Shown in pieces: positions 1 through 64,000 of a stretch of 64,000 bases of DNA. Under the pieces are notes generated by a model. That model did not search any database, had not been told where the DNA came from, and saw only the letters and a program-made list of their open reading frames with translations. This stretch comes from Candidatus Nomurabacteria bacterium (lineage in GTDB: Bacteria > Patescibacteriota > Minisyncoccia > Phycocordibacterales > JACOZG01), in assembly GCA_020847275.1 (NCBI GenBank), contig JADLCI010000007.1, positions 27,814 to 91,813 of the forward strand. The letters are read 5' to 3'. Within the stretch, counting starts at the first letter, position 1. Each line of letters begins with the position of its first letter. The position numbers were made by a program, and so were the translations under genes.

Positions 1-1159
1 TGGTGTTCCTGATCAAGCAAATCAGGGTTCTCCGCGGACTTATACTTTCTCTTGGGATACTGGGCAGCCGCCACTTCGTGGGGGAAATTATACTATTTAC
101 GTTTCAGCCACTGACCACTTCGGTAACACCGTTAATTCAGAGCCTTACTCCGTTACGGTAAAGATTACGGAAAACTCCATTAAATCGCTCAATTTTCTAA
201 CTCCACTGGAGGGCAACAATGTTCGGGGGACCGTGCCGGTTGTGGCGGCTTTGGTTGGTGCCGCCAATACGATTTCTATTAGGCTTGGTGATTTTACGGG
301 GCCAATCATAGGGGCCTTTACCGATGCCAATGGCTCGAATACGCCACCAAACGGAGTTGGATTGCCTAAGACGGGCTCTTCCGAGCGTTCGAAACAGCGT
401 TACTTCTCACTCAATTGGGATACCAAAAATGGGCCATTTGCTGTTCCAAATGGTCAGCGTTACTTGTCGCTAGAAGGGGTTCACACTTCAGGTCAGAGGT
501 TTTTGAGTCAGAGTATCTGGGTAAGAGTTGATAACCCTTCGGAGGGGACACCGCCGGTTAGTGGCTCTTCGGATGATCGTTTTGGTCCGGCCGTGAGAAT
601 TTGGGCTGAACCGTCAAGTTGGAATCCCGGTAGTCAGCAACTTATTTCTTTCAAAACATCGGTCCGCGATCCCGATGGGATCTCCCAGGTTAGTATCAAG
701 GTTGGCAATCTTCCTGCTGCTAATTGTCAGGGTTTCGGCCAGACGGAGTCTTCTTGTCAGGTTTCATCGGTTCGAGCCACGTCTGTGCCCGTTGGCACCA
801 CGGTGACCGTCACCGCTTGGGATAACTCGTCCGCCCGTCGACAAACAGTGTTCTCTACCGAGGTAAAGAATGGGTCGCTTGGTAGTCAATCCAGTGGTCG
901 CCAATCTTCCTCTTGCCAGTCTCAAACTTCTCAGGGACAGAGCTTGCTCCCCAAGAGTTTGTCTGGCGTTGATCGTTCAACCTTGGCAGAGATTTCAGAT
1001 CAAGGAAACTGTCTAGCTATTCTTAGTCCGGCCGAATCTCCCTCAAACATTTCTTTTCCCACCCTTGCGGCGCCAGCGTCTGCACCATCTTCTGTTCTCG
1101 ACATTGGTGGAATTATTTTCCAATTGATACTGAAGATATTAGGTCGGGGGTTGATTTAG
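1..1159 (+). CDS. Large secreted protein with Ig-like (bacterial Ig / cadherin-like) folds; 3' part only, its start lies upstream of the window
   Basis: The frame that holds ORF 233..1159 is open back to nt 2 with no stop. The translation shows repeated beta-sandwich motifs such as YTIYVSATDHFGNTVNSEPYSVTVKI. It is Ser/Thr/Gly-rich and has a C-terminal hydrophobic tail. Confidence 0.6.
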   Translation, partial: GVPDQANQGSPRTYTFSWDTGQPPLRGGNYTIYVSATDHFGNTVNSEPYSVTVKITENSIKSLNFLTPLEGNNVRGTVPVVAALVGAANTISIRLGDFTGPIIGAFTDANGSNTPPNGVGLPKTGSSERSKQRYFSLNWDTKNGPFAVPNGQRYLSLEGVHTSGQRFLSQSIWVRVDNPSEGTPPVSGSSDDRFGPAVRIWAEPSSWNPGSQQLISFKTSVRDPDGISQVSIKVGNLPAANCQGFGQTESSCQVSSVRATSVPVGTTVTVTAWDNSSARRQTVFSTEVKNGSLGSQSSGRQSSSCQSQTSQGQSLLPKSLSGVDRSTLAEISDQGNCLAILSPAESPSNISFPTLAAPASAPSSVLDIGGIIFQLILKILGRGLI

Positions 1160-1165
1160 AGCGGT

Positions 1166-1936
1166 TCATTGTGGAAATTCCATGGCCAGCTCATTGGAGT
1201 GGAAAAACTCATAGGCCAGACGCCCGAAGCTGTAATTATGACCACCAAGTTCTATCTCTGAACCACCAACTTGAGGGTTAATCTTTGGTTGAGAATTAGC
1301 GAAACCAATGTTAAAGAGGGTTGCTAGGATTTCTGGTTGATTTGAAATATCAAAGCCAGCCACTTGCCATTGAGCAATTATTTCCTTGACGTAAATGGCT
1401 GTGTAAAGGTAGGCAAAATAATGATTTTTCTCATCGGCAATTCTCGAGAAACGCTCTTGTCCATAATTTTCAGTGGCAAAGTCCAGCAGATGAGCATATT
1501 TTTCTCCGGGGAAAAAGGGCGAGCTTTTGTCTTGTAAATTTTTTTCAATTTGTTCAGCTGTTTCCGGTTTTAATCCAGCCACTCCCCAAGAAAATTGGGT
1601 TTGGTTGCCCAGAATTTTTAAGGGTAGAAAAACTTGTTTGAAGATTTCTCGCTCGTCGTTGAAGAGGCGCAATTGTTCCGGTATCACCATTGCCACGATT
1701 AGCCGTGGTGAGATGTCTGTTGCCATGGAAGCCTGTTCAATTGCCGATTTGTCTTTAATTAGAGCCACTTTTAGGGTTTGCCATTCTTCGGTATTTATCC
1801 AAATCGGCGATGGTCTGATCTCTAGCTCCACTTCGTCCACCAGGCCAGCTACATTTGTCCAGCCGAATTTCACCGCGAAGAAAACGGAAGCATAGAGAGC
1901 GATAATTGTTGTCACGATACTTATCCCCAGTTTCAT
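1166..1936 (-). CDS. Hypothetical protein with an N-terminal signal-anchor
   Basis: Long ORF 1166..2137. The likely start is the internal Met (MKLGISIVTTIIALYASVFF, nt 1936) that lies just before a TM helix. The ORF-track start at 2137 would overlap the divergent gene at 1988. I do not recognise the family. Confidence 0.5.
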   Translation of the reverse strand: MKLGISIVTTIIALYASVFFAVKFGWTNVAGLVDEVELEIRPSPIWINTEEWQTLKVALIKDKSAIEQASMATDISPRLIVAMVIPEQLRLFNDEREIFKQVFLPLKILGNQTQFSWGVAGLKPETAEQIEKNLQDKSSPFFPGEKYAHLLDFATENYGQERFSRIADEKNHYFAYLYTAIYVKEIIAQWQVAGFDISNQPEILATLFNIGFANSQPKINPQVGGSEIELGGHNYSFGRLAYEFFHSNELAMEFPQ

Positions 1937-1963
1937 GGTGGGTAGCATAACACAGACGCGCGT

Positions 1964-1973
1964 GGGGGGGGGG
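1964..1973. repeat. G10 homopolymeric tract in the divergent promoter region, directly abutting a TATAAT box
   Basis: Ten consecutive G at 1964-1973 are followed by TATAAT at 1974-1979, and the ATG of the PKD protein gene is at 1988. Confidence 0.8.
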
Positions 1974-1979
1974 TATAAT
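1974..1979 (+). promoter_or_regulatory. Candidate -10 box (TATAAT) 8 nt upstream of the start codon; implies a leaderless or near-leaderless transcript
   Basis: Perfect TATAAT at 1974-1979, ATG at 1988. No Shine-Dalgarno sequence would fit between them. Confidence 0.45.
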
Positions 1980-1987
1980 AGTGGTAT

Positions 1988-3646
1988 ATGAAAAAATATA
2001 AATTTCTGGCCAGCCTTGTATTGGCCACGGTCCTTCTTTTCAGTGGTACCCTGGCTCAAGCTCAAGCGATTCCAGCCAATAATATCTGTAGCATTATCGT
2101 TCTTCTCGGCCAGCTGAATGTCATCACACCGCAACAAATCATCACGCTCAATAATGCGCTTGGTTGCGGTAACACTCCTCAGCCACCTGGTCTTCCTCCC
2201 GGCTGTACCAGCACTAGTGGCTTCAGTCCCACGACGGGTCAGTCTTGTGGAGGTGGGTCTACTCCTGATTTAGCCTCTTTTAGTATTGTTTCACCAAATC
2301 GTGACACCATCTGGCGGAATGATACTGCCGGAGAATGGCTAACAATTAAGTGGAAATATGCTCCTGGAAGCATTGACGGATCTGCTCGAGTTCGTGTTGA
2401 TTTAGTGGGAACACGATACGGTCTCGCAAGTGGTCAGAGGGTAGATGAGGGGCAAGTGAGAATTAATATTTCTCCCGATATCCAGCCAGGCAGGTATCAG
2501 ATCAAAATCTCTGACTTCGATAACGGAAAGATTTTTGCTTACAGTGACTACTTTACTGTCACCTCTGGCGGAACGACGGGTAACCGGCCACCAGTAGTCT
2601 CTGGTGTTTCTGGGCCGACAGTCTTGCGGGTGGGGGAGACGGGCACTTGGAGTGTCCGTGCTAGCGATCCGGAGAATCAGTCCTTGAGCTACAGTGTTTT
2701 ATGGGGTGATGAGAATCTGCTTGCCTATAGCGTGGCTGGACCAAGAACAGTTTCGCAGTCAGCTACCTTCACTCACAGTTATGCAACTCCGGGTAACTAC
2801 TCCCCAAATTTCACTGTCACCGACTCTTTCGGCCAATCAGCCAGAACGAGTTTGAGTGTCCAGGTGGGTGGTGGTAATACCCCAATTCCAGCTCCGACGG
2901 TTCTCCTAAATGTAAATGGTCATGTCGCCACTGGCTACGATAGTCCGAGTGTGAATATTGGTAGCATTTCAACCGCCGTGATTAACTGGTCGAGTACTCC
3001 AAATGCCACCAGGTGCAATACTTACGGACAGGGTTCTCTTCGTCTTACTGATGGAACGATGTGGGATTTTTACAACCTGCCAGTCTCTGGTTCACGAACA
3101 TTCCAAACTTCTGGTCAGATTGATGGCTTGGGCAATACGATAACCGCCGCAACTATAGGTATACAGTGCTGGAGTAACGACTTTGCCAGCAGCGACAGTA
3201 AAGGACTCGTGGTCTCTTGGTCTGGCGGCTCGACCCCACCACCTCCGCCACTACCAACCCCACAATCTTCTACCATTTCTGTTGAGAGACCTCGTTCGGG
3301 CGATAATTGGCGCTTGGGTGAGAATAGGGAGATTACTTGGGAAGATAGCGGTTCAACCGGATTCAACTACAAAGTTTATGTTCGTGGAGACAGTCCCGCC
3401 TCCGCTTACCAACTGATTGGTCAAACAGCAACGAATAAATTACGCTGGACAGTTGGTCCTGGCGGACAATTTCCGGTTGGATCTTATAGGGTGGAGGTTA
3501 TAAAAGATGATGGTTTGGGTTACAACAAGAATCTCAGTGGCCAATTCACCATCTCTTCTGGCGGTCATGCTTCAATCTACAATGAAGGCCAGATGGCAAA
3601 CATTTCTTCATCCATTCGTTCGTTACTTCAACTTTTTGGACGGTAG
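1988..3646 (+). CDS. Secreted protein with PKD domain(s) and Ig-like domains
   Basis: Signal peptide MKKYKFLASLVLATVLLFSGTLAQAQA. PKD signature WGDEN...FTHSYATPGNYSPNFTVTDSFGQSA. Ig-like repeats and a proline-rich linker PPPPLPTP. Confidence 0.75.
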   Translation: MKKYKFLASLVLATVLLFSGTLAQAQAIPANNICSIIVLLGQLNVITPQQIITLNNALGCGNTPQPPGLPPGCTSTSGFSPTTGQSCGGGSTPDLASFSIVSPNRDTIWRNDTAGEWLTIKWKYAPGSIDGSARVRVDLVGTRYGLASGQRVDEGQVRINISPDIQPGRYQIKISDFDNGKIFAYSDYFTVTSGGTTGNRPPVVSGVSGPTVLRVGETGTWSVRASDPENQSLSYSVLWGDENLLAYSVAGPRTVSQSATFTHSYATPGNYSPNFTVTDSFGQSARTSLSVQVGGGNTPIPAPTVLLNVNGHVATGYDSPSVNIGSISTAVINWSSTPNATRCNTYGQGSLRLTDGTMWDFYNLPVSGSRTFQTSGQIDGLGNTITAATIGIQCWSNDFASSDSKGLVVSWSGGSTPPPPPLPTPQSSTISVERPRSGDNWRLGENREITWEDSGSTGFNYKVYVRGDSPASAYQLIGQTATNKLRWTVGPGGQFPVGSYRVEVIKDDGLGYNKNLSGQFTISSGGHASIYNEGQMANISSSIRSLLQLFGR

Positions 3647-3652
3647 AATCTG

Positions 3653-3661
3653 TGTTATAAT
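3653..3661 (+). promoter_or_regulatory. Extended -10 promoter (TGnTATAAT) 8 nt upstream of the ATG of the TraD-like gene; leaderless architecture
   Basis: TGTTATAAT spans 3653-3661 and the ATG is at 3670. The spacing is identical to the 1974/1988 case. Confidence 0.45.
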
Positions 3662-3669
3662 CTGGCAAT

Positions 3670-5307
3670 ATGGCGGAAATGCCGATTGTCAAAGATAGAA
3701 CTTACTTTGCCGAAACTGATTTCCGAGGCAAGCGAACGAAGTTTGGCATTAAGTTTGAAGACCGTGCTCGGCATGTCTATGTGATTGGAAAGACAGGCAT
3801 GGGAAAAAGTACCATGCTGGAGAATATGGCCGTCCAAGATATCGCCGATGGGCACGGTATGGCTTTCATCGACCCGCACGGTAGTACGGCCGAGAAGTTA
3901 TTGGAATATGTGCCAGAGCATCGCATTAAGGATGTGATCTATTTTGCACCGTTCGATTTAGAGAATCCGATTTCTTTCAATGTTATGGAGGACGTGGGGG
4001 CCGACCAACGACACTTGGTGGTGAATGGTTTGATGAGCGCGTTTAAGAAACTCTGGGTAGATGCCTGGAGTGCGCGCATGGAATATATTCTAACCAACAC
4101 CTTGCTTGCCTTACTTGAGTATCCCAACTCCACCCTGCTTGGAGTGAATCGGATGCTTGCCGACAAGGTTTATCGCCAGAAAGTGGTGGATAATATCAAG
4201 GATCCCACCGTCCGTTCTTTCTGGGTTGATGAATTTGCCAAGTACACAGAGCGTTTCGCGGCCGAAGCCACGCCGGCGATTCAGAATAAAATCGGGCAAT
4301 TTACGGGGAATCCGCTGATTCGCAATATCATTGGGCAAACAAAATCGTCTTTCAGTTTTCGTCAAGCAATGGACGAACGAAAAATTTTAATCATCAATCT
4401 ATCCAAAGGCAGAATGGGCGAGGGGAATGCCAATCTACTTGGCTCAATGATTATCACTAAGATTTATCTAGCGGCGATGAGCCGAGCCAACTTGTCGCCA
4501 GCCGAGATGCGCTTGGTGCCCCCGTTCTATTTCTATGTCGATGAATTTCAATCCTTTGCCAACGAATCCTTTGCCAACATTCTTTCTGAGGCAAGGAAAT
4601 ATAAATTATCTCTGACAATCGCCCATCAGTATGTAGAGCAGATGTCGGAAGAGGTACAGGCGGCCGTTTTTGGTAACGTTGGGACGACGGTGGCTTTCCG
4701 GGTTGGTCCGCTTGATGCCGAAATTTTCGAGAAGATTTTTGCTCCCACTTTTAGTATGGAGGATATGGTTAATCTCGGCTTCGCTCAGATCTATTTAACG
4801 ATGATGATCGACGGGGTGGGCTCCCAACCATTTTCGGCGATTACTTTACCACCGATCACACCTCTAGCACGTTCCTATCACGATGAAATTATTTCTTGGA
4901 CACGAAAAACCTATGCGCGGCCTCGGGACATGGTTGAGAAGGACATCGGTAATTGGCATGCGACGCCATCTACGCCAAAGACGTTTGTTCCACCTCTTCC
5001 GCCGAGAACGGCTCAAGTTTCACGACCAAATCCACCAGTTTCTCGAGTGGACGCAGTGACGCCAAAAAAATTTATTGAACCGGAGAAGGTTGTTTCCCTC
5101 AAATCGCTTGAGCAGAAGGTGGAGACAAGAGAGAAGAGTACTGGGCGACACAGTGCTGATTTACGTGATGTGATTGCATCGGTTCAGAAGGAAGTTGCCG
5201 GGGGTCAAGCAAAAACCTTAGAAGAAAAAGCGCCAGAGAAGACAGCTGAAAAAAGACCAAGAAACGAAATTCCCGAAAATGAACTGAAGAAGATGTTGGA
5301 AGTATGA
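3670..5307 (+). CDS. P-loop ATPase of the type IV secretion coupling-protein superfamily (TraD/TraG/VirD4-like, DUF87/HerA-like), stand-alone
   Basis: Walker A motif VIGKTGMGKST. The overall layout matches the T4SS DNA-transfer family proteins that are common as orphans in CPR genomes. The C-terminal tail is charged and low-complexity. Confidence 0.6.
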   Translation: MAEMPIVKDRTYFAETDFRGKRTKFGIKFEDRARHVYVIGKTGMGKSTMLENMAVQDIADGHGMAFIDPHGSTAEKLLEYVPEHRIKDVIYFAPFDLENPISFNVMEDVGADQRHLVVNGLMSAFKKLWVDAWSARMEYILTNTLLALLEYPNSTLLGVNRMLADKVYRQKVVDNIKDPTVRSFWVDEFAKYTERFAAEATPAIQNKIGQFTGNPLIRNIIGQTKSSFSFRQAMDERKILIINLSKGRMGEGNANLLGSMIITKIYLAAMSRANLSPAEMRLVPPFYFYVDEFQSFANESFANILSEARKYKLSLTIAHQYVEQMSEEVQAAVFGNVGTTVAFRVGPLDAEIFEKIFAPTFSMEDMVNLGFAQIYLTMMIDGVGSQPFSAITLPPITPLARSYHDEIISWTRKTYARPRDMVEKDIGNWHATPSTPKTFVPPLPPRTAQVSRPNPPVSRVDAVTPKKFIEPEKVVSLKSLEQKVETREKSTGRHSADLRDVIASVQKEVAGGQAKTLEEKAPEKTAEKRPRNEIPENELKKMLEV

Positions 5308-6350
5308 ATCGTCCACGAGTCCTCATTTTTTCACTAGCTTATTTCCCCTTTGTCGGTGGGGCGGAGGTTGCGGTCAAGGAATTAACTGATCGTTTGGGTG
5401 GATATTTTGAATTCGAGATAATTTCAGCTGATATCAAAAACTTCTGGTCAAAATATTTTTTCCCTTTCTGGGCTTCTCGGCAGGCTAAGCGGCAACACAG
5501 GCTAAGAAAATACGATTTAGTCTGGTCGATCATGGCGAATCAGGCAGGGATGGCCGGTGCTTTGTTCAAAAAGTATCATCCGGGGATCCCTTTTCTGCTT
5601 ACCCTCCAAGAGGGGGATGATTTGGACAGTTTTTTTTACCGTCTGCGTTTGCTTGCCCCTAGGTTGTTTGGGGTTTTTGCTCGCCCAGACCAGATTCAGG
5701 TGATTTCAAACTATCTAGCAGGTTGGGCAAAGAAAATGGGTGCCCGTTGTCCCATTGTGGTTATTCCAAATGGAGTTGATCTGAGCAAGTTTGGAAATCG
5801 AGAGGGTAATCTTGAGAAAGTGATTATTACAACATCACGGTTGGTGAAGAAAAACGGAATAGATTCTTTGGTCCGCTCACTCGCTTTTTTACCAGACGAT
5901 GTTAAACTGCAAATCCTTGGCCTTGGGCCAGAGGAGAAAGCGTTGAGGCGCCTGGTTACCAGTCTTCAACTGTCCGCCAGAGTCTCATTTTTGGGCCAGA
6001 TTGAGAGTAAGAACGTGGGTCAATACTTATCTCATGCCACTGTTTTTGCGCGTCCTTCGCGCTCGGAGGGGCTGGGGAACTCCTTTCTTGAGGCGATGGC
6101 GGCTGGATTGCCTGTTATTGCCACACCGGTTGGTGGAATCACTGATTTTTTGAGAGAAGGGGAGACAGGCTGGTTTTGCGAGGTCAACAACCCAAGATCC
6201 ATTTCTGAAAAGGTGAAATTCATTTTAGCGCCAGAGAATCAAGAACAAGTTACTCGGATAGTTAGCAATGCGCGGAAAATGGTTTATGAAAATTACGATT
6301 GGAATAAATTAGCGGAGAGATTTACTGGCTTATTGAAACAAATGTTATGA
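5304..6350 (+). CDS. Glycosyltransferase family 4 (GT-B)
   Basis: C-terminal GT4 signature EGLGNSFLEAMAAGLPVIATPVGGITDFL...GETGWF. The ATGA overlaps the upstream stop. Confidence 0.8.
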   Translation: MNRPRVLIFSLAYFPFVGGAEVAVKELTDRLGGYFEFEIISADIKNFWSKYFFPFWASRQAKRQHRLRKYDLVWSIMANQAGMAGALFKKYHPGIPFLLTLQEGDDLDSFFYRLRLLAPRLFGVFARPDQIQVISNYLAGWAKKMGARCPIVVIPNGVDLSKFGNREGNLEKVIITTSRLVKKNGIDSLVRSLAFLPDDVKLQILGLGPEEKALRRLVTSLQLSARVSFLGQIESKNVGQYLSHATVFARPSRSEGLGNSFLEAMAAGLPVIATPVGGITDFLREGETGWFCEVNNPRSISEKVKFILAPENQEQVTRIVSNARKMVYENYDWNKLAERFTGLLKQML

Positions 6351-6889
6351 GAATAGTAATCGCTACGGGAATTTATCCGCCCCAGATTGGAGGACCAGCG
6401 CAATATGCGAAAAATTTGGCCGAAGAGTTCATCAAAAAGGGACACAGGGTTAAAATTTTGACTTACCGGCTGGAGAAGCACTTACCTTCTGGAGTTAGAC
6501 ATTTTTATTTTTTTGCCAAGTTGATATTTGCCCTCTGGCGAGTTGATTTTATTTTAGCGCTAGATACTTTTTCCGTTGGGTTGCCAGCCGTTTTGGCGGC
6601 TAGATTGGTTGGTAAAAAGATAATGATTAGGACAGGCGGGGATTTTCTTTGGGAAGGTTACGTGGAACGGACTGGTCATTTGGTTTTATTGCGGGAGTTT
6701 TATGAGAATGTTCGGGGAGGGTCAGTCAGGCTAAATTTCAAAGAGAAGGCTATTTTTGGTTTGACAAAATGGGTAATACATAAAGCTCAAATGATAGTGT
6801 TTAGTACCGAATGGCAAAGGGATATTTGGTCTAAACCGTATCAGTTGAGCCGACAGAAGACGAAAATTATTGAAAATTATTATGGCTAA
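6347..6889 (+). CDS. GT4 glycosyltransferase, N-terminal (acceptor) Rossmann half only; split gene
   Basis: MRIVIATGIYPPQIGGPAQYAKNLAEEF is a typical GT4 N-terminus. The ORF ends after 180 aa, where the next ORF continues the same protein family. Confidence 0.55.
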   Translation: MRIVIATGIYPPQIGGPAQYAKNLAEEFIKKGHRVKILTYRLEKHLPSGVRHFYFFAKLIFALWRVDFILALDTFSVGLPAVLAARLVGKKIMIRTGGDFLWEGYVERTGHLVLLREFYENVRGGSVRLNFKEKAIFGLTKWVIHKAQMIVFSTEWQRDIWSKPYQLSRQKTKIIENYYG

Positions 6890-7331
6890 AATATTCATTG
6901 CTGGTACTAGGAAATTAAAATGGAAAAATTTATCTCTACTTGAGCGCGCTTTCGCTTTGGCCCAGAAGGCTCAACCAGAGCTTGTTCTTGATCTTAATAA
7001 CTGGCCTTACGAAGAATTTTTACAGAAAATAGCAGAGGCCTATGCCGTGATTCTTGTCTCACTCGGAGATATTAGTCCTAATTTGGTTTTGGATGCATTA
7101 CGTTTAGGGAAACCGGTTATTTTGACCACAGAAACAGGATTACGGCAGAGGTTGGGGGAGTCAGTAATTTGGGTGAATCCAGAAGACGAGAAAGATATTT
7201 CACAAAAGATCATCTGGTTGTCCGATCCCGAGAATTATCAACACTCTTGCCAACGCGCAAAGATGTTTGATTTGAAGCATTCGTGGTCGGACATTGCCGA
7301 TGAATTTTTAGACCTAGCTAAAGGTTTATGA
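6882..7331 (+). CDS. GT4 glycosyltransferase, C-terminal (donor) half only; split gene, possibly an authentic frameshift or pseudogene
   Basis: KPVILTTETGLRQRLGESVIWVNP is a GT4 C-terminal motif. The ATG at 6882 overlaps the upstream TAA (6887-6889) by 8 nt. The track start is a TTG at 6870. Confidence 0.5.
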   Translation: MAKIFIAGTRKLKWKNLSLLERAFALAQKAQPELVLDLNNWPYEEFLQKIAEAYAVILVSLGDISPNLVLDALRLGKPVILTTETGLRQRLGESVIWVNPEDEKDISQKIIWLSDPENYQHSCQRAKMFDLKHSWSDIADEFLDLAKGL

Positions 7332-56158: not shown

Positions 56159-56463
56159 GTCTGGTGTCGGGTAGTTGCTCTCGTTTCGGAATTTGAGACG
56201 GGAGAGGAAAGTCCGAACACTTATCCATCAAAAGGTGGATTAAAATGGTAGCGGGTAATGCCCGTCCGGAGCAATCCGTGAGGTGCGAACAGAGACGAGC
56301 TCCTTCAGTGGAGGTGAAACGGCTAAATCCTTACCCAAGTGCAAGGTCGTGCCCCGCTATTTGCGGGGAGTGCCGCTAGAGGCTAATGGTGACATTAGTC
56401 CCAGATAAATAACTATCTCCTTGTCTAAGATAGGGAACAGAATTCGGCTTATAGACACCAGAC
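56159..56463 (+). ncRNA. rnpB: RNase P RNA (bacterial type A-like, reduced)
   Basis: P4 strands GGAAAGTCCGAAC (about 56208) and ACAGAATTCGGCTTATAG (about 56437). Conserved AGTGGAGGTGAAACGGCTAAATCC... region. P1 helix GTCTGGTGTC at 56159-56168 pairs with GACACCAGAC at 56454-56463. Confidence 0.85.
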
Positions 56464-56474
56464 AAAGAGTCAAA

Positions 56475-60562: not shown

Positions 60563-60633
60563 GCGGGGTTAGTTCAGTGGCAGAATGAGTGCTTCCCAAG
60601 CATTAGACGCGAGTTCGATTCTCGCATCCCGCA
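60563..60633 (+). tRNA. tRNA-Gly (anticodon CCC)
   Basis: Cloverleaf: acceptor GCGGGGT/ATCCCGC, D-arm GTTC-AGTGGCA-GAAT, anticodon arm AGTGC-TTCCCAA-GCATT, T-arm GCGAG-TTCGATT-CTCGC. No CCA is encoded. Confidence 0.9.
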
Positions 60634-60717
60634 CTTGCAAGTTTAGGATAACCATGTTACTTTCTTGGTAGTCGTTTTTTTGGTGTTTTCGGTGCTTTCA
60701 CGAACAGGAGAAAACAA

Positions 60718-61012: not shown

Positions 61013-61055
61013 CTTGCAAAATCAAATTTTTCTGTTAGAATTGGTTTCTTAAATT

Positions 61056-62969
61056 ATGCCCCCCCTTTCTACTAAACCAAACCGTTCACCACGCCAGATT
61101 ATGACTCAATTCGGCGGGCAAATTATCCTGACAATTCTAATTCTGTTTGTTCTTATCGGCGCCTATTCTTCTTTGAAAAATAATGAAACCACAATACGAG
61201 AAGTACCCATCTCCGAATTGGCGAAATCAATTACAGAAGGCGTGGTTACGGAGGTCTCTGTTAGTGGCGATACACTGGAGGCGACGCTTCAGTCGGGCGA
61301 GATGGTAAGGTCCAAGAAAGAAACCGAGACCGCTCTCTCCAGCGCCCTCCAGAATTACGGCGTGACTTCAGATAAGTTGGCCGCGGTAACAGTGAACGTG
61401 AAAGAGCCCAGCGGCCTTTCTTTCTGGGTCGCAAATCTATTACCGTTTCTTATTCCTCTGGTTTTTATCCTTTTTTTGTTTTGGTATATTTCGCGTCAGG
61501 TGAAGGGGGCTTCAATGCAGGCACTCTCTTTCGGCCAGTCGAAGGCGAAGATTATTGACCCGAACGATTCTGGGCAGCGCATCACTTTCAAGGATGTCGC
61601 TGGTGTTCGTGAGGCCAAGGAGGAACTTCTAGAGATTGTCGACTTTTTGAAAAATCCAAAGAAGTTTCTAGATATTGGGGCTCGGATTCCAAAAGGGGTC
61701 CTTTTGATGGGTGCCCCCGGTACTGGTAAAACTTTGCTTGCTCGAGCGGTGGCTGGTGAGGCGCAGGTTCCTTTTCTCTATCTTTCTGGCTCCGACTTCG
61801 TGGAGATGTTTGTGGGTGTTGGTGCTTCTCGGGTGCGTGATTTATTTCGTCTGGCGAAGAAGTTGGCCCCGTCAATTATTTTCATTGATGAAATTGATGC
61901 CATTGGTCGACATCGGGGGAGTGGCATGGGTGGAGGCAACGATGAACGAGAGCAAACCCTTAATCAAATTTTGGTCGAGATGGACGGTTTTGAGCCAAAT
62001 GAGAAATTGATTGTAATGGCGGCCACCAACCGACCGGATGTTCTTGACCCAGCTTTGCTTCGTCCGGGGCGCTTTGATCGACGTGTTGTTCTGGATAATC
62101 CAGACATCCGTGACCGAGAGGAAATTCTTCAAATCTACGCGCGACAGAAACCACTTGGGCCAGATGTTAACTTGCGCATTATTGCTGAGCGGACACCGGG
62201 GTTTTCTGGTGCCGATCTTGCGAACCTAATGAATGAGGGAGCAATTCTGGCGGCCCGGGAGAGTCGTTCGGAGATTACCCAGTTTGATTTAATCAGAAGT
62301 GTGGAGAAGGTGATGCTTGGCCCAGAACGCAAGAGCCACATTCTTTCCATTAAGGAAAAGAAAATTACCGCTTATCACGAAATGGGGCATGCTTTGGTTG
62401 CGAGTGTTCTGCCTGACGCTGACCCGGTTCATAAAGTTTCAATTATTTCTCGTGGGCATGCCGCTGGATATACCCTCAAGCTTCCACTAGAAGATCGCAA
62501 ATTACAGTCGCGCCAGGAATTCTTGGATGATATCGCGATGTCGCTTGGTGGTTACGCCGCCGAGCAGCTCATTTTCGGTGATATTACCACTGGAGCCTCT
62601 AACGATATTGCGGTGTCCACATCTCTGGCCAGAAGCATGGTGACGAAATATGGAATGAGCGATAAACTTGGACCAATCGCTTTTGACTCCGGTGGAAGTA
62701 AAATGTGGTGGGGTGGGGCGACGGGGAGTGAGACTTATTCGTCAGAGACTGTCCAGACGGCCATTGATGGTGAGGTGGCCAAGATTATGACCGAAGCCCT
62801 CACGCGGGCGAAAAAAGTTTTAAACGAAAATCGCAAGGCGCTAGATAAGATGTCGGAGGAGTTAATTAAGGTGGAGACGATTGATCGGGAGGATTTCGAC
62901 AAACTCCTTATCCTCAATGGCATCAAGCCGAAAGTCGCCGATCTCGCCGATGGTGCTAAAATAGGTTAG
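61056..62969 (+). CDS. ftsH: ATP-dependent zinc metalloprotease FtsH
   Basis: Walker [22 protein letters not shown] region. HEMGHAL zinc-binding motif. Confidence 0.95.
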
Positions 62970-62979
62970 CCTCGGCCCG

Positions 62980-63053
62980 GCACGCGTAGCTCAGTTGGTT
63001 AGAGCACCGAGCTTATACCTCGGCGGTCCTTGGTTCGAATCCAAGCGCGTGCA
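62980..63053 (+). tRNA. tRNA-Ile with genomically encoded UAU anticodon
   Basis: Acceptor GCACGCG/CGCGTGC, D-arm GCTC-AGTTGGTTA-GAGC, anticodon arm CCGAG-CTTATAC-CTCGG (U33, TAT at 63014-63016, A37), T-arm CTTGG-TTCGAAT-CCAAG. Confidence 0.82.
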
Positions 63054-63072
63054 CAGAGTCTCTTTTCCCCTA

Positions 63073-63101
63073 TTGACAAACAGTTTCCACTATGCTAGAC
63101 T
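63073..63101 (+). promoter_or_regulatory. Strong sigma70-like promoter TTGACA-17-TAGACT downstream of tRNA-Ile
   Basis: TTGACA at 63073-63078 and TAGACT at 63096-63101. Confidence 0.5.
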
Positions 63102-63256
63102 CTAGCCAGTAGTCCTTTTACACCTAACTTGCATTTCGCCATAGCAGAAAGTGGCTCAACCCAGGGCTATTCTCTGCTGTGGCGAAGAACCCAGCGAACA
63201 ATAAACCAGAGCATGCTGCGTAGTCAGCGAGCTCACAACACGAAAGGACATGCTAT

Positions 63257-63979
63257 ATGAATAGCGAGTTCACACTCAGTCAGGGATCAGGACAGAAACT
63301 GGAGTTTGCCGTTCAGCGTAACGGCGGCACCACCGAAGACATCGAATACTTGAGCACCGGCGACAACTTCCGTGCGGTCTCACTGCTGCGGACAGGGAAA
63401 GCCAAACTCGTCGAAGTCTCCGAGAACGGGTCCGAAGGCGCGGTCATTCCGACTGCTCCGACACTCGTCGAATGGACCACCGACAGCGACGGCATCATCC
63501 ACTTCACGCTCATCTCAAATGGCCTTACCCGCAAACAGTGGGAACGTCACCTCGAAAGCCGTGGCTTCCGTCTCTCCGATTGGGCTCGCAATGTGCTCCG
63601 TCGCGCGAGCGAAGCTCCGACCAACGGCGTGGCCTATCACATCGTCGTTCGCCCCGGCAGCAAGATCGCTTCACGCAATCGCGTCACGAAGAAGATTCGT
63701 GCTCACGCTGCCGACAAGGGCTGGAAGACTCCCCATTGGGAAGTCGCTTGCCTCATCCGCGATAGGTTCTCGGATGAACAGCTCGAGAAGATGGGACTGT
63801 GGTGGATCGTCACCATGCACGAACCCATCACTGATTCCGACGGCGATCCGTACTTGCTCTACTCCTGCCGGCTCGCTGGTGGTCGTTGGCTCTTCGCCCA
63901 CTATTTCAGGCCTGACGTCGAGTGGGATGCCCCCGGTGGGTTTGCGTTCGTTGTCTCGCAAGTCAGTCCTCAAACCTAA
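63257..63979 (+). CDS. Hypothetical protein, GC-rich (about 58 to 60 %), likely horizontally acquired
   Basis: 240-aa ORF with codon usage and GC clearly different from the rest of the window. It lies directly downstream of a tRNA gene with its own promoter and a long structured 5' UTR. Confidence 0.55.
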   Translation: MNSEFTLSQGSGQKLEFAVQRNGGTTEDIEYLSTGDNFRAVSLLRTGKAKLVEVSENGSEGAVIPTAPTLVEWTTDSDGIIHFTLISNGLTRKQWERHLESRGFRLSDWARNVLRRASEAPTNGVAYHIVVRPGSKIASRNRVTKKIRAHAADKGWKTPHWEVACLIRDRFSDEQLEKMGLWWIVTMHEPITDSDGDPYLLYSCRLAGGRWLFAHYFRPDVEWDAPGGFAFVVSQVSPQT

Positions 63980-64000
63980 GCAACTTTGGACTCCGGTCCT

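Follow-up and report, generated by a model that had tools for sequence, protein, structure and literature searches.

A tRNA-Ile gene with an encoded UAU anticodon next to ftsH in a Nomurabacteria genome, and its bearing on AUA decoding in Patescibacteria

In the canonical bacterial system the codon AUA is read as isoleucine by tRNA-Ile2(CAU), in which C34 is made into lysidine by TilS. TilS is regarded as an essential enzyme that nearly all bacteria possess, and it has been found in 98% of genomes (PMC6063277). Nine species have been recorded without tilS (PMC3575796), and the bacterial genomes with a TAT tRNA that have been counted in the literature number 17–19 (PMC4013482, PMC8450103). A 2026 preprint still writes of "rare cases" of tRNA-Ile(UAU).

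In Mycoplasma mobile, a bacterium with a reduced genome, an encoded UAU anticodon reads AUA and stands in for tRNA-Ile2(CAU) and TilS (Taniguchi et al. 2013, PMC3575796). In this organism it is known by experiment that U34 is unmodified, that IleRS carries a Trp-to-Arg change and that the ribosome rejects AUG. Bifidobacterium and Neorickettsia also have a bacterial UAU tRNA and no tilS, and their IleRS is of the eukaryote type (PMC3575796). Among ultra-small or deep-branching prokaryotes, Nanoarchaeum equitans and Korarchaeum cryptofilum possess a tRNA-Ile3(UAU) that replaces the CAU-type tRNA-Ile2 (PMC8450103). In these two archaea the UAU tRNA takes over from TiaS (agmatidine) and not from TilS.

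Here we describe a tRNA-Ile gene with a UAU anticodon in a window of Patescibacteria DNA (the window is the whole stretch that was analysed, 64 kb in length). Like the M. mobile gene it has an encoded UAU anticodon, lies in a reduced genome and is predicted to read AUA in place of the tRNA-Ile2(CAU)/TilS pair. It differs in being known from sequence alone, and the Mycoplasma lineage is unrelated to Patescibacteria. Bifidobacterium and Neorickettsia belong to separate phyla and represent small clades, whereas the occurrence in Patescibacteria covers many classes. With the canonical tRNA-Ile2(CAU) the gene shares the predicted reading of AUA as isoleucine, the elements A73, C4-G69 and U12-A23, and a place near ftsH, to which tilS is often linked. 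In contrast to that tRNA it encodes U34, which would need no modifying enzyme for a switch of amino-acid and codon identity. The features discussed below are collected in Table 1.

Table 1. Positions of the features discussed, numbered from the first letter of the window.
Feature	Coordinates	Strand	Evidence or remark
tRNA-Ile(UAU) gene	62980..63053	+	74 nt through discriminator A73; ARAGORN call tRNA-Ile(tat), 62980-63054 (+); Rfam RF00005 match 62980-63053
Anticodon TAT (U34 A35 U36)	63014..63016	+	Sequence reading; ARAGORN puts the anticodon at position 35
ftsH (AAA + M41 protease)	61056..62969	+	Pfam PF00004, PF01434, PF06480
Promoter-like site TTGCAA-16-TAGAAT	61014..61041	+	Upstream of ftsH; consensus match only
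Strong promoter-like site TTGACA-17-TAGACT, TG before the -10 hexamer	63073..63101	+	Directly after the tRNA
Slot between tRNA-Ile(UAU) and recG	63055-64000		Variable among relatives
tRNA-Gly(CCC)	60563-60634	+	Between divIC and ftsH
Class-A bacterial RNase P RNA	56159-56467	+	309 nt; 128.7 bits
Surface-glycan cluster	5304-33151		~28 kb, first half of the window
ORF, N-terminal half of a GT4 (Glyco_transf_4)	6347-6889	+	Overlaps the next ORF
ORF, C-terminal half of the same GT4 (Glycos_transf_1)	6870-7331	+	Different frame from the preceding ORF
TrwB/TraG-like type IV coupling protein	3670-5307	+	Adjoins the PKD-domain surface proteins
PKD-domain surface proteins	1988-3646		

ARAGORN calls only two tRNA genes in the 64 kb, tRNA-Gly(CCC) and tRNA-Ile(UAU). 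The latter matches the Rfam tRNA family over its full length, with 73.6 bits against a gathering score of 29 (E = 3.2e-14), and zero non-canonical pairs are flagged in the alignment, all pairs being canonical. The full gene reads GCACGCG-TA-GCTC-AGTTGGTTA-GAGC-A-CCGAG-CTTATAC-CTCGG-CGGTC-CTTGG-TTCGAAT-CCAAG-CGCGTGC-A. This comprises the acceptor stem (GCACGCG/CGCGTGC), the D arm (GCTC-AGTTGGTTA-GAGC), the anticodon arm (CCGAG-CTTATAC-CTCGG), the variable loop (CGGTC), the T arm (CTTGG-TTCGAAT-CCAAG) and the discriminator A. Read from the sequence, the anticodon loop is CTTATAC (C32 U33 ... A37 C38), and a 3' CCA is not encoded in the gene.

The original prediction had described a canonical cloverleaf with a genomically encoded UAU anticodon and had proposed an ARAGORN run as a check. 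The run returned a tRNA-Ile(tat), the cloverleaf is borne out by both ARAGORN and Rfam, and the coordinates proved exact. The anticodon also held up, TAT being present in independent assemblies in which the stems carry compensatory changes. The observation of a UAU-anticodon tRNA-Ile gene is confirmed, and by every testable feature the gene is a tRNA and a tRNA-Ile of the UAU type. Taken as a single gene it is a further case of an encoded bacterial tRNA-Ile(UAU), a type already known.

The isoleucine identity elements for E. coli IleRS, reportedly worked out by Nureki in 1994, are said to be A73, A37, A38, C4-G69, U12-A23 and C29-G41. The window tRNA has A73, A37, C4-G69 and U12-A23 of this reference set, which is that of E. 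coli and may not be the set of the host. It departs from the set in two places, with C38 for A38 and G29-C41 for C29-G41.

The gene starts 10 nt past the stop codon of ftsH. This FtsH is 100% identical to an NCBI protein of Candidatus Nomurabacteria bacterium encoded on a 296-kb contig, and its close homologues are all from Patescibacteria. The source is accordingly placed among the CPR bacteria, in the class Paceibacteria. Upstream of ftsH lie divIC, tRNA-Gly, lepA and murJ, followed by the RNase P RNA, a class II ribonucleotide reductase and other genes. The tRNA-Gly(CCC) gene is found in the same place in three related loci (L001-L003). The RNase P RNA is short and lacks several regions of the 367-position consensus model, in keeping with a reduced CPR genome.

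The promoter-like site upstream of ftsH is a candidate for driving a joint transcript of ftsH and tRNA-Ile. The interval from the ftsH stop codon to the tRNA yielded no such site, so co-transcription of ftsH and tRNA-Ile(UAU) is the simplest reading, and the two are probably co-transcribed. The strong promoter-like site after the tRNA has a recognisable counterpart in L001, with the sequences diverging beyond it, and on this comparison it would mark the start of the next, lineage-variable unit.

The arrangement with ftsH recurs in relatives of the source genome. In L001, from a Logan run (FtsH 96% identical), the tRNA follows ftsH and is identical to the window copy. In L002/L003, from a Hainich groundwater MAG (FtsH 82% identical), it also follows ftsH and has five base differences from the window copy. 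These change A3-U70 to G-C and C6-G67 to U-A, plus one base of the D loop, and so two acceptor-stem pairs are fully compensated. In L248 and L249 (FtsH 69-70% identical) the gene order is ftsH, tRNA-Ile(tat), recG. In about 30 GTDB Patescibacteria loci the UAU tRNA lies 13-750 nt downstream of ftsH. There is no tRNA after ftsH in L247 (10001-12500; FtsH 74% identical), and no PF01171 gene was found there inside 10 kb; in this locus the tRNA has moved or been lost from the ftsH-adjacent site.

UAU tRNAs were searched for in GTDB, with one genome per species and the D arm plus CTTATA as the pattern. At least 120 UAU tRNAs were found. Of those listed, 73 come from named Patescibacteria lineages, as given by submitter labels, some of which look imprecise. 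The Patescibacteria among the matches listed are Saccharibacteria, Nomura-, Taylor-, Uhr-, Magasanik-, Falkow-, Dojka-, Collier-, Doudna-, Moran-, Peri- and Peregrinibacteria. Other matches listed include Ignavibacteria, Dormibacterota, Limnocylindria, Planctomycetota and three uncultured archaeal genomes. It had been claimed at the outset that a UAU anticodon is limited to a few bacterial lineages such as Mycoplasma, Bifidobacterium and Neorickettsia. The literature agrees with this claim, but the matches in Patescibacteria, at least 73 in number, do not. The UAU tRNA is widespread in Patescibacteria and is therefore the normal state for this lineage.

Counts of tRNA genes are available for 95 complete Patescibacteria genomes in Table S2 of a 2026 tRNA-intron paper (PMC13011429), the main text of which mentions neither UAU nor TilS. 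The table gives counts per amino acid, without anticodons. The tRNAscan-SE "Ile" count leaves out the CAU-type Ile2, and the ARAGORN "Met" count takes in all CAU tRNAs. At least two tRNAscan-SE Ile tRNAs are present in 45 genomes, 40 of which have at most two CAU tRNAs and five at least three. A single Ile tRNA is present in the other 50 genomes, none of which has at most two CAU tRNAs and all of which have at least three. Genomes with more than one Ile tRNA thus tend to lack a third CAU tRNA, and the two are anticorrelated across the 95 genomes (Fisher p = 1.2e-21). With at most two CAU tRNAs, the 40 genomes are taken to be without tRNA-Ile2(CAU).

The counts of Ile and CAU tRNAs differ between classes. 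Among Paceibacteria they are (2,2) in 14 genomes, (1,3) in five and (2,3) in one. All seven Dojkabacteria genomes have (2,2) and all 12 Microgenomatia genomes have at least two Ile and at most two CAU tRNAs, while 33 of the 36 Saccharimonadia genomes have (1,3). The pattern expected for replacement of TilS by a UAU tRNA is seen in two of the four ABY1 genomes. We infer from the class-level agreement with the GTDB scan that the second Ile tRNA is UAU, an identity that rests on this class match because the table gives no anticodons. A Patescibacteria genome that has a UAU tRNA is very probably without tRNA-Ile2(CAU). Where tRNA-Ile2(CAU) is absent TilS is left without a role, as its substrate is missing.

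TilS was searched for using phmmer with the E. coli protein and using the SGGxDS motif, together with Pfam scans of the window. The original prediction had proposed a search of the genome for tilS and for a CAU-type tRNA-Ile2. This was carried out within the 64-kb window and related loci, and neither was found in the window: it contains no TilS-like or PP-loop ORF (SGGxDS), and ARAGORN finds no CAU tRNA in it, including any CAU-type tRNA-Ile2. No TilS was found in 933 kb around UAU tRNAs. This total takes in 21 related loci that reach 1.2 kb or more beyond the start of ftsH, and tilS is beside ftsH in none of them. Nor does it occur within ±10 kb of ftsH in L001-L003 and L247-L249. As a positive control, the same method recovered 16 TilS ORFs from 685 kb of metagenome DNA around CAU tRNAs, and the order tRNA(CAU)-tilS-ftsH was present in all five of the control loci that hold ftsH.

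Several control loci (L145, L164, L168, L185, L244 and others), which come from unrelated metagenomic bacteria, have a CAU tRNA with C38 directly upstream of tilS-ftsH. These tRNAs are of Met or Ile2 type, so that the gene for the enzyme and that for a possible substrate would be adjacent. In the cultured Saccharibacterium Southlakia epibionticum the gene immediately upstream of ftsH is tilS (294 aa, PF01171), and the annotation has only one tRNA-Ile (PMC10633639). A C34 twin of the tRNA family, with a pattern ending in CTCATAC, was absent from the matches listed for the metagenome collection, which are unrelated tRNA-Met/Ile2 genes. In a Paceibacteria MAG, Prokka wrongly labels an N-acetyl sugar amidotransferase as "tRNA(Ile)-lysidine synthase".

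We consider it likely that AUA is decoded independently of TilS in the source genome, with tRNA-Ile(UAU) replacing tRNA-Ile2(CAU) and TilS as in M. mobile. TilS-independent decoding had been part of the original prediction, and it is made likely, by indirect support, by the empty tilS slot upstream of ftsH and by the 40 of 45 genomes without a third CAU tRNA. For the source genome, of which 64 kb are visible, tilS and tRNA-Ile2(CAU) are presumed to be absent beyond the window as well. Membership of the source genome in the TilS-independent system, predicted from these 64 kb, is probable.

The strongest alternative is that the UAU tRNA is a redundant second decoder of AUA, auxiliary or transitional, in a genome that keeps tilS and tRNA-Ile2(CAU) somewhere outside the visible 64 kb. 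Both systems are reported together in Lactobacillus casei, Cyanothece and Ferrimonas (Taniguchi 2013, PMC3575796). Three CAU tRNAs are kept by five of the 45 complete genomes that have more than one Ile tRNA, among them one of the 15 such Paceibacteria, but the other 40 are without the third. The ftsH-adjacent position of tilS is also empty, both in the window and in 21 of 21 informative related loci. Redundancy is in our view unlikely.

In the TilS-independent reading, which we prefer, the tRNA would share a transcript with ftsH. RNase P, the RNA of which is encoded in the same window, would process the 5' end of the tRNA, and an enzyme would supply the 3' CCA. Charging with isoleucine would fall to an IleRS that accepts U34, and the charged tRNA would read AUA through U34-A pairing. 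Misreading of AUG would be curbed by competition with tRNA-Met, possibly also by properties of the ribosome.

No IleRS was found in the window or in related loci. With E. coli IleRS as the query there is one clear match in the fetched loci (352 bits), in the uncultured archaeon L031 (a 788-kb contig). In this locus the IleRS gene (863-3775, minus strand) adjoins a tRNA-Ile(UAU) at ~3821-3851. Weaker matches to the same query (~880 aa, ~165 bits) are probably ValRS, judged by length and score. We take the DUF5915 domain to mark an IleRS of the eukaryote/archaeal-like type. A Paceibacteria MAG has an IleRS with a DUF5915 C-terminal domain (PMC10936435), which is apparently of a different type from the IleRS of M. 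mobile. The eukaryote-type IleRS of Bifidobacterium and Neorickettsia may also hold in Paceibacteria.

For the phylum as a whole, we favour on balance the reading that a large share of Patescibacteria, ~42% of the complete genomes, has swapped TilS and tRNA-Ile2(CAU) for an encoded tRNA-Ile(UAU). This would apply to 14/20 Paceibacteria, 7/7 Dojkabacteria, 12/12 Microgenomatia and 2/4 ABY1. The same reading, held with the same modest leaning, has most Saccharimonadia keeping TilS. No statement of a phylum-wide replacement of TilS was found in open-access papers and preprints; it may be noted elsewhere, and the pattern appears to be unreported. Taniguchi et al. proposed a pre-TilS UAU stage for LUCA. 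The UAU tRNA also occurs in Dormibacterota, Limnocylindria and small archaea, which suggests that the UAU state could be ancestral and represent such a stage, an idea that we hold to be improbable.

If the phylum-wide replacement is true, no other bacterial radiation that decodes AUA without lysidine would come near Patescibacteria in size. A sizeable share of bacterial diversity would then tell AUA (Ile) and AUG (Met) apart with no modified cytidine, and it would become a question how the unusual ribosomes and the IleRS of Patescibacteria avoid reading AUG as isoleucine. Cultured Patescibacteria would be a natural system for the handling of an encoded U34 by IleRS and ribosome. TilS would be unreliable as a universal marker or drug target for Patescibacteria, and the annotation of CPR tRNAs should expect Ile(UAU) in place of Ile2(CAU). 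The window gene alone has modest value, as a clean and well-supported example that is ordinary for its lineage.

Right after the tRNA the G+C climbs from 0.46 to 0.53, and a GC-rich ORFan begins just downstream. The slot between the tRNA and recG (12000-12600 in L001, 12004-12850 in L002) contains a different ORFan in each relative, of 240 aa and GC-rich in the window, and of 146 aa and 277 aa elsewhere. The ORFs of the slot have no convincing match in Pfam, PHROGs or PADLOC; the L002 ORF has a weak match to DUF3644 (E = 2.8e-4).

The shift in G+C and the GC-rich ORFan could point to a foreign tRNA brought in by a phage or genomic island, and tRNA genes are frequent integration sites. However, the position of the tRNA directly behind ftsH is kept by some 30 Patescibacteria species and by the close relatives, L247 excepted, while the DNA that follows it varies. 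Its constant place argues that the tRNA is core, and at most forms the edge of a variable slot. The tRNA family has no matches (0) in 2.9 million viral contigs, and the neighbouring ORFs match no phage or defence family. The synteny with ftsH and the absence from viral contigs largely rule out carriage by a phage or island, which we regard as very unlikely.

The tRNA family was compared across 105 unique UAU homologues, for which the search pattern itself dictated the D stem. In the other three stems (acceptor, anticodon and T), pairing is kept in 96-105 of the 105 sequences, and each position shows 3-6 pair types. All but one of the homologues (104) have A73, and every one has CTTATAA, CTTATAC or CTTATAT as its anticodon loop. 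The compensatory changes in the stems indicate that the fold is under selection, and tRNA-Ile(UAU) is most likely a functional, vertically inherited gene. An artefact or dead gene had been considered in the original prediction itself: a pseudogene, or a tRNA-Ile2(CAU) in which an error of sequencing or assembly turned C into T at position 34. This reading found no support and is ruled out by the conservation data with almost no probability left to it: the same TAT is seen in assemblies from separate samples (Logan SRR22077680, ENA ERZ1292624 / GCA_964356885.1, a JGI metagenome and ENA ERZ27249449) and in at least 117 GTDB species genomes among the matches listed, the stem changes are compensatory and the Rfam score is high.

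A C1-G72 pair is unusual among bacterial elongator tRNAs. It starts 19 of the 105 unique UAU tRNAs, many of them from Paceibacteria (loci L010, L011, L013, L015, L020, L030 and others). A G1-U72 pair is present in 15 of the 105.

The frequency of AUA was determined, as had been proposed with the original prediction, and the codon is freely used. ATA occurs 210 times in 50 ORFs (19,232 codons), a rate of 10.9 per 1000 codons, and supplies 16.5% of the Ile codons. Muraski et al. place usage of >10 per 1000 in a "high" AUA class (PMC12514573), and the window falls in this class. The share of ATA among Ile codons is lower in housekeeping genes, with 3-9% in ftsH, lepA and secA, against up to 30-38% in some genes of the glycan cluster.

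A UAU anticodon could in principle pair with both AUA and AUG, and the tRNA might then read AUA, perhaps also AUG, as an amino acid other than isoleucine, for example methionine as in some mitochondria. Codon alignments of seven orthologous genes, comparing the window with L001 and L002, speak against such a reassignment. Of 56 orthologue codons that face ATA, 41 encode Ile, eight Val or Leu and two Met, and ATG is aligned with Met in 109 of 137 cases. Because ATA faces Ile codons and rarely Met, AUA is, judged by these alignments, read as isoleucine and has not been reassigned. Reassignment is ruled out at the level of codon substitution patterns, and its probability is negligible.

The glycan cluster occupies a region of lower G+C. 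It contains many GT4, GT2 and GT9 glycosyltransferases, NeuB, a CMP-sugar cytidylyltransferase, DegT and class-III aminotransferases, and methyltransferases. One GT4 is divided between two overlapping ORFs, which may reflect a frameshift, a pseudogene or a sequencing error. The TrwB/TraG-like protein listed in Table 1 fits the type IV secretion machinery of Patescibacteria known from the literature.
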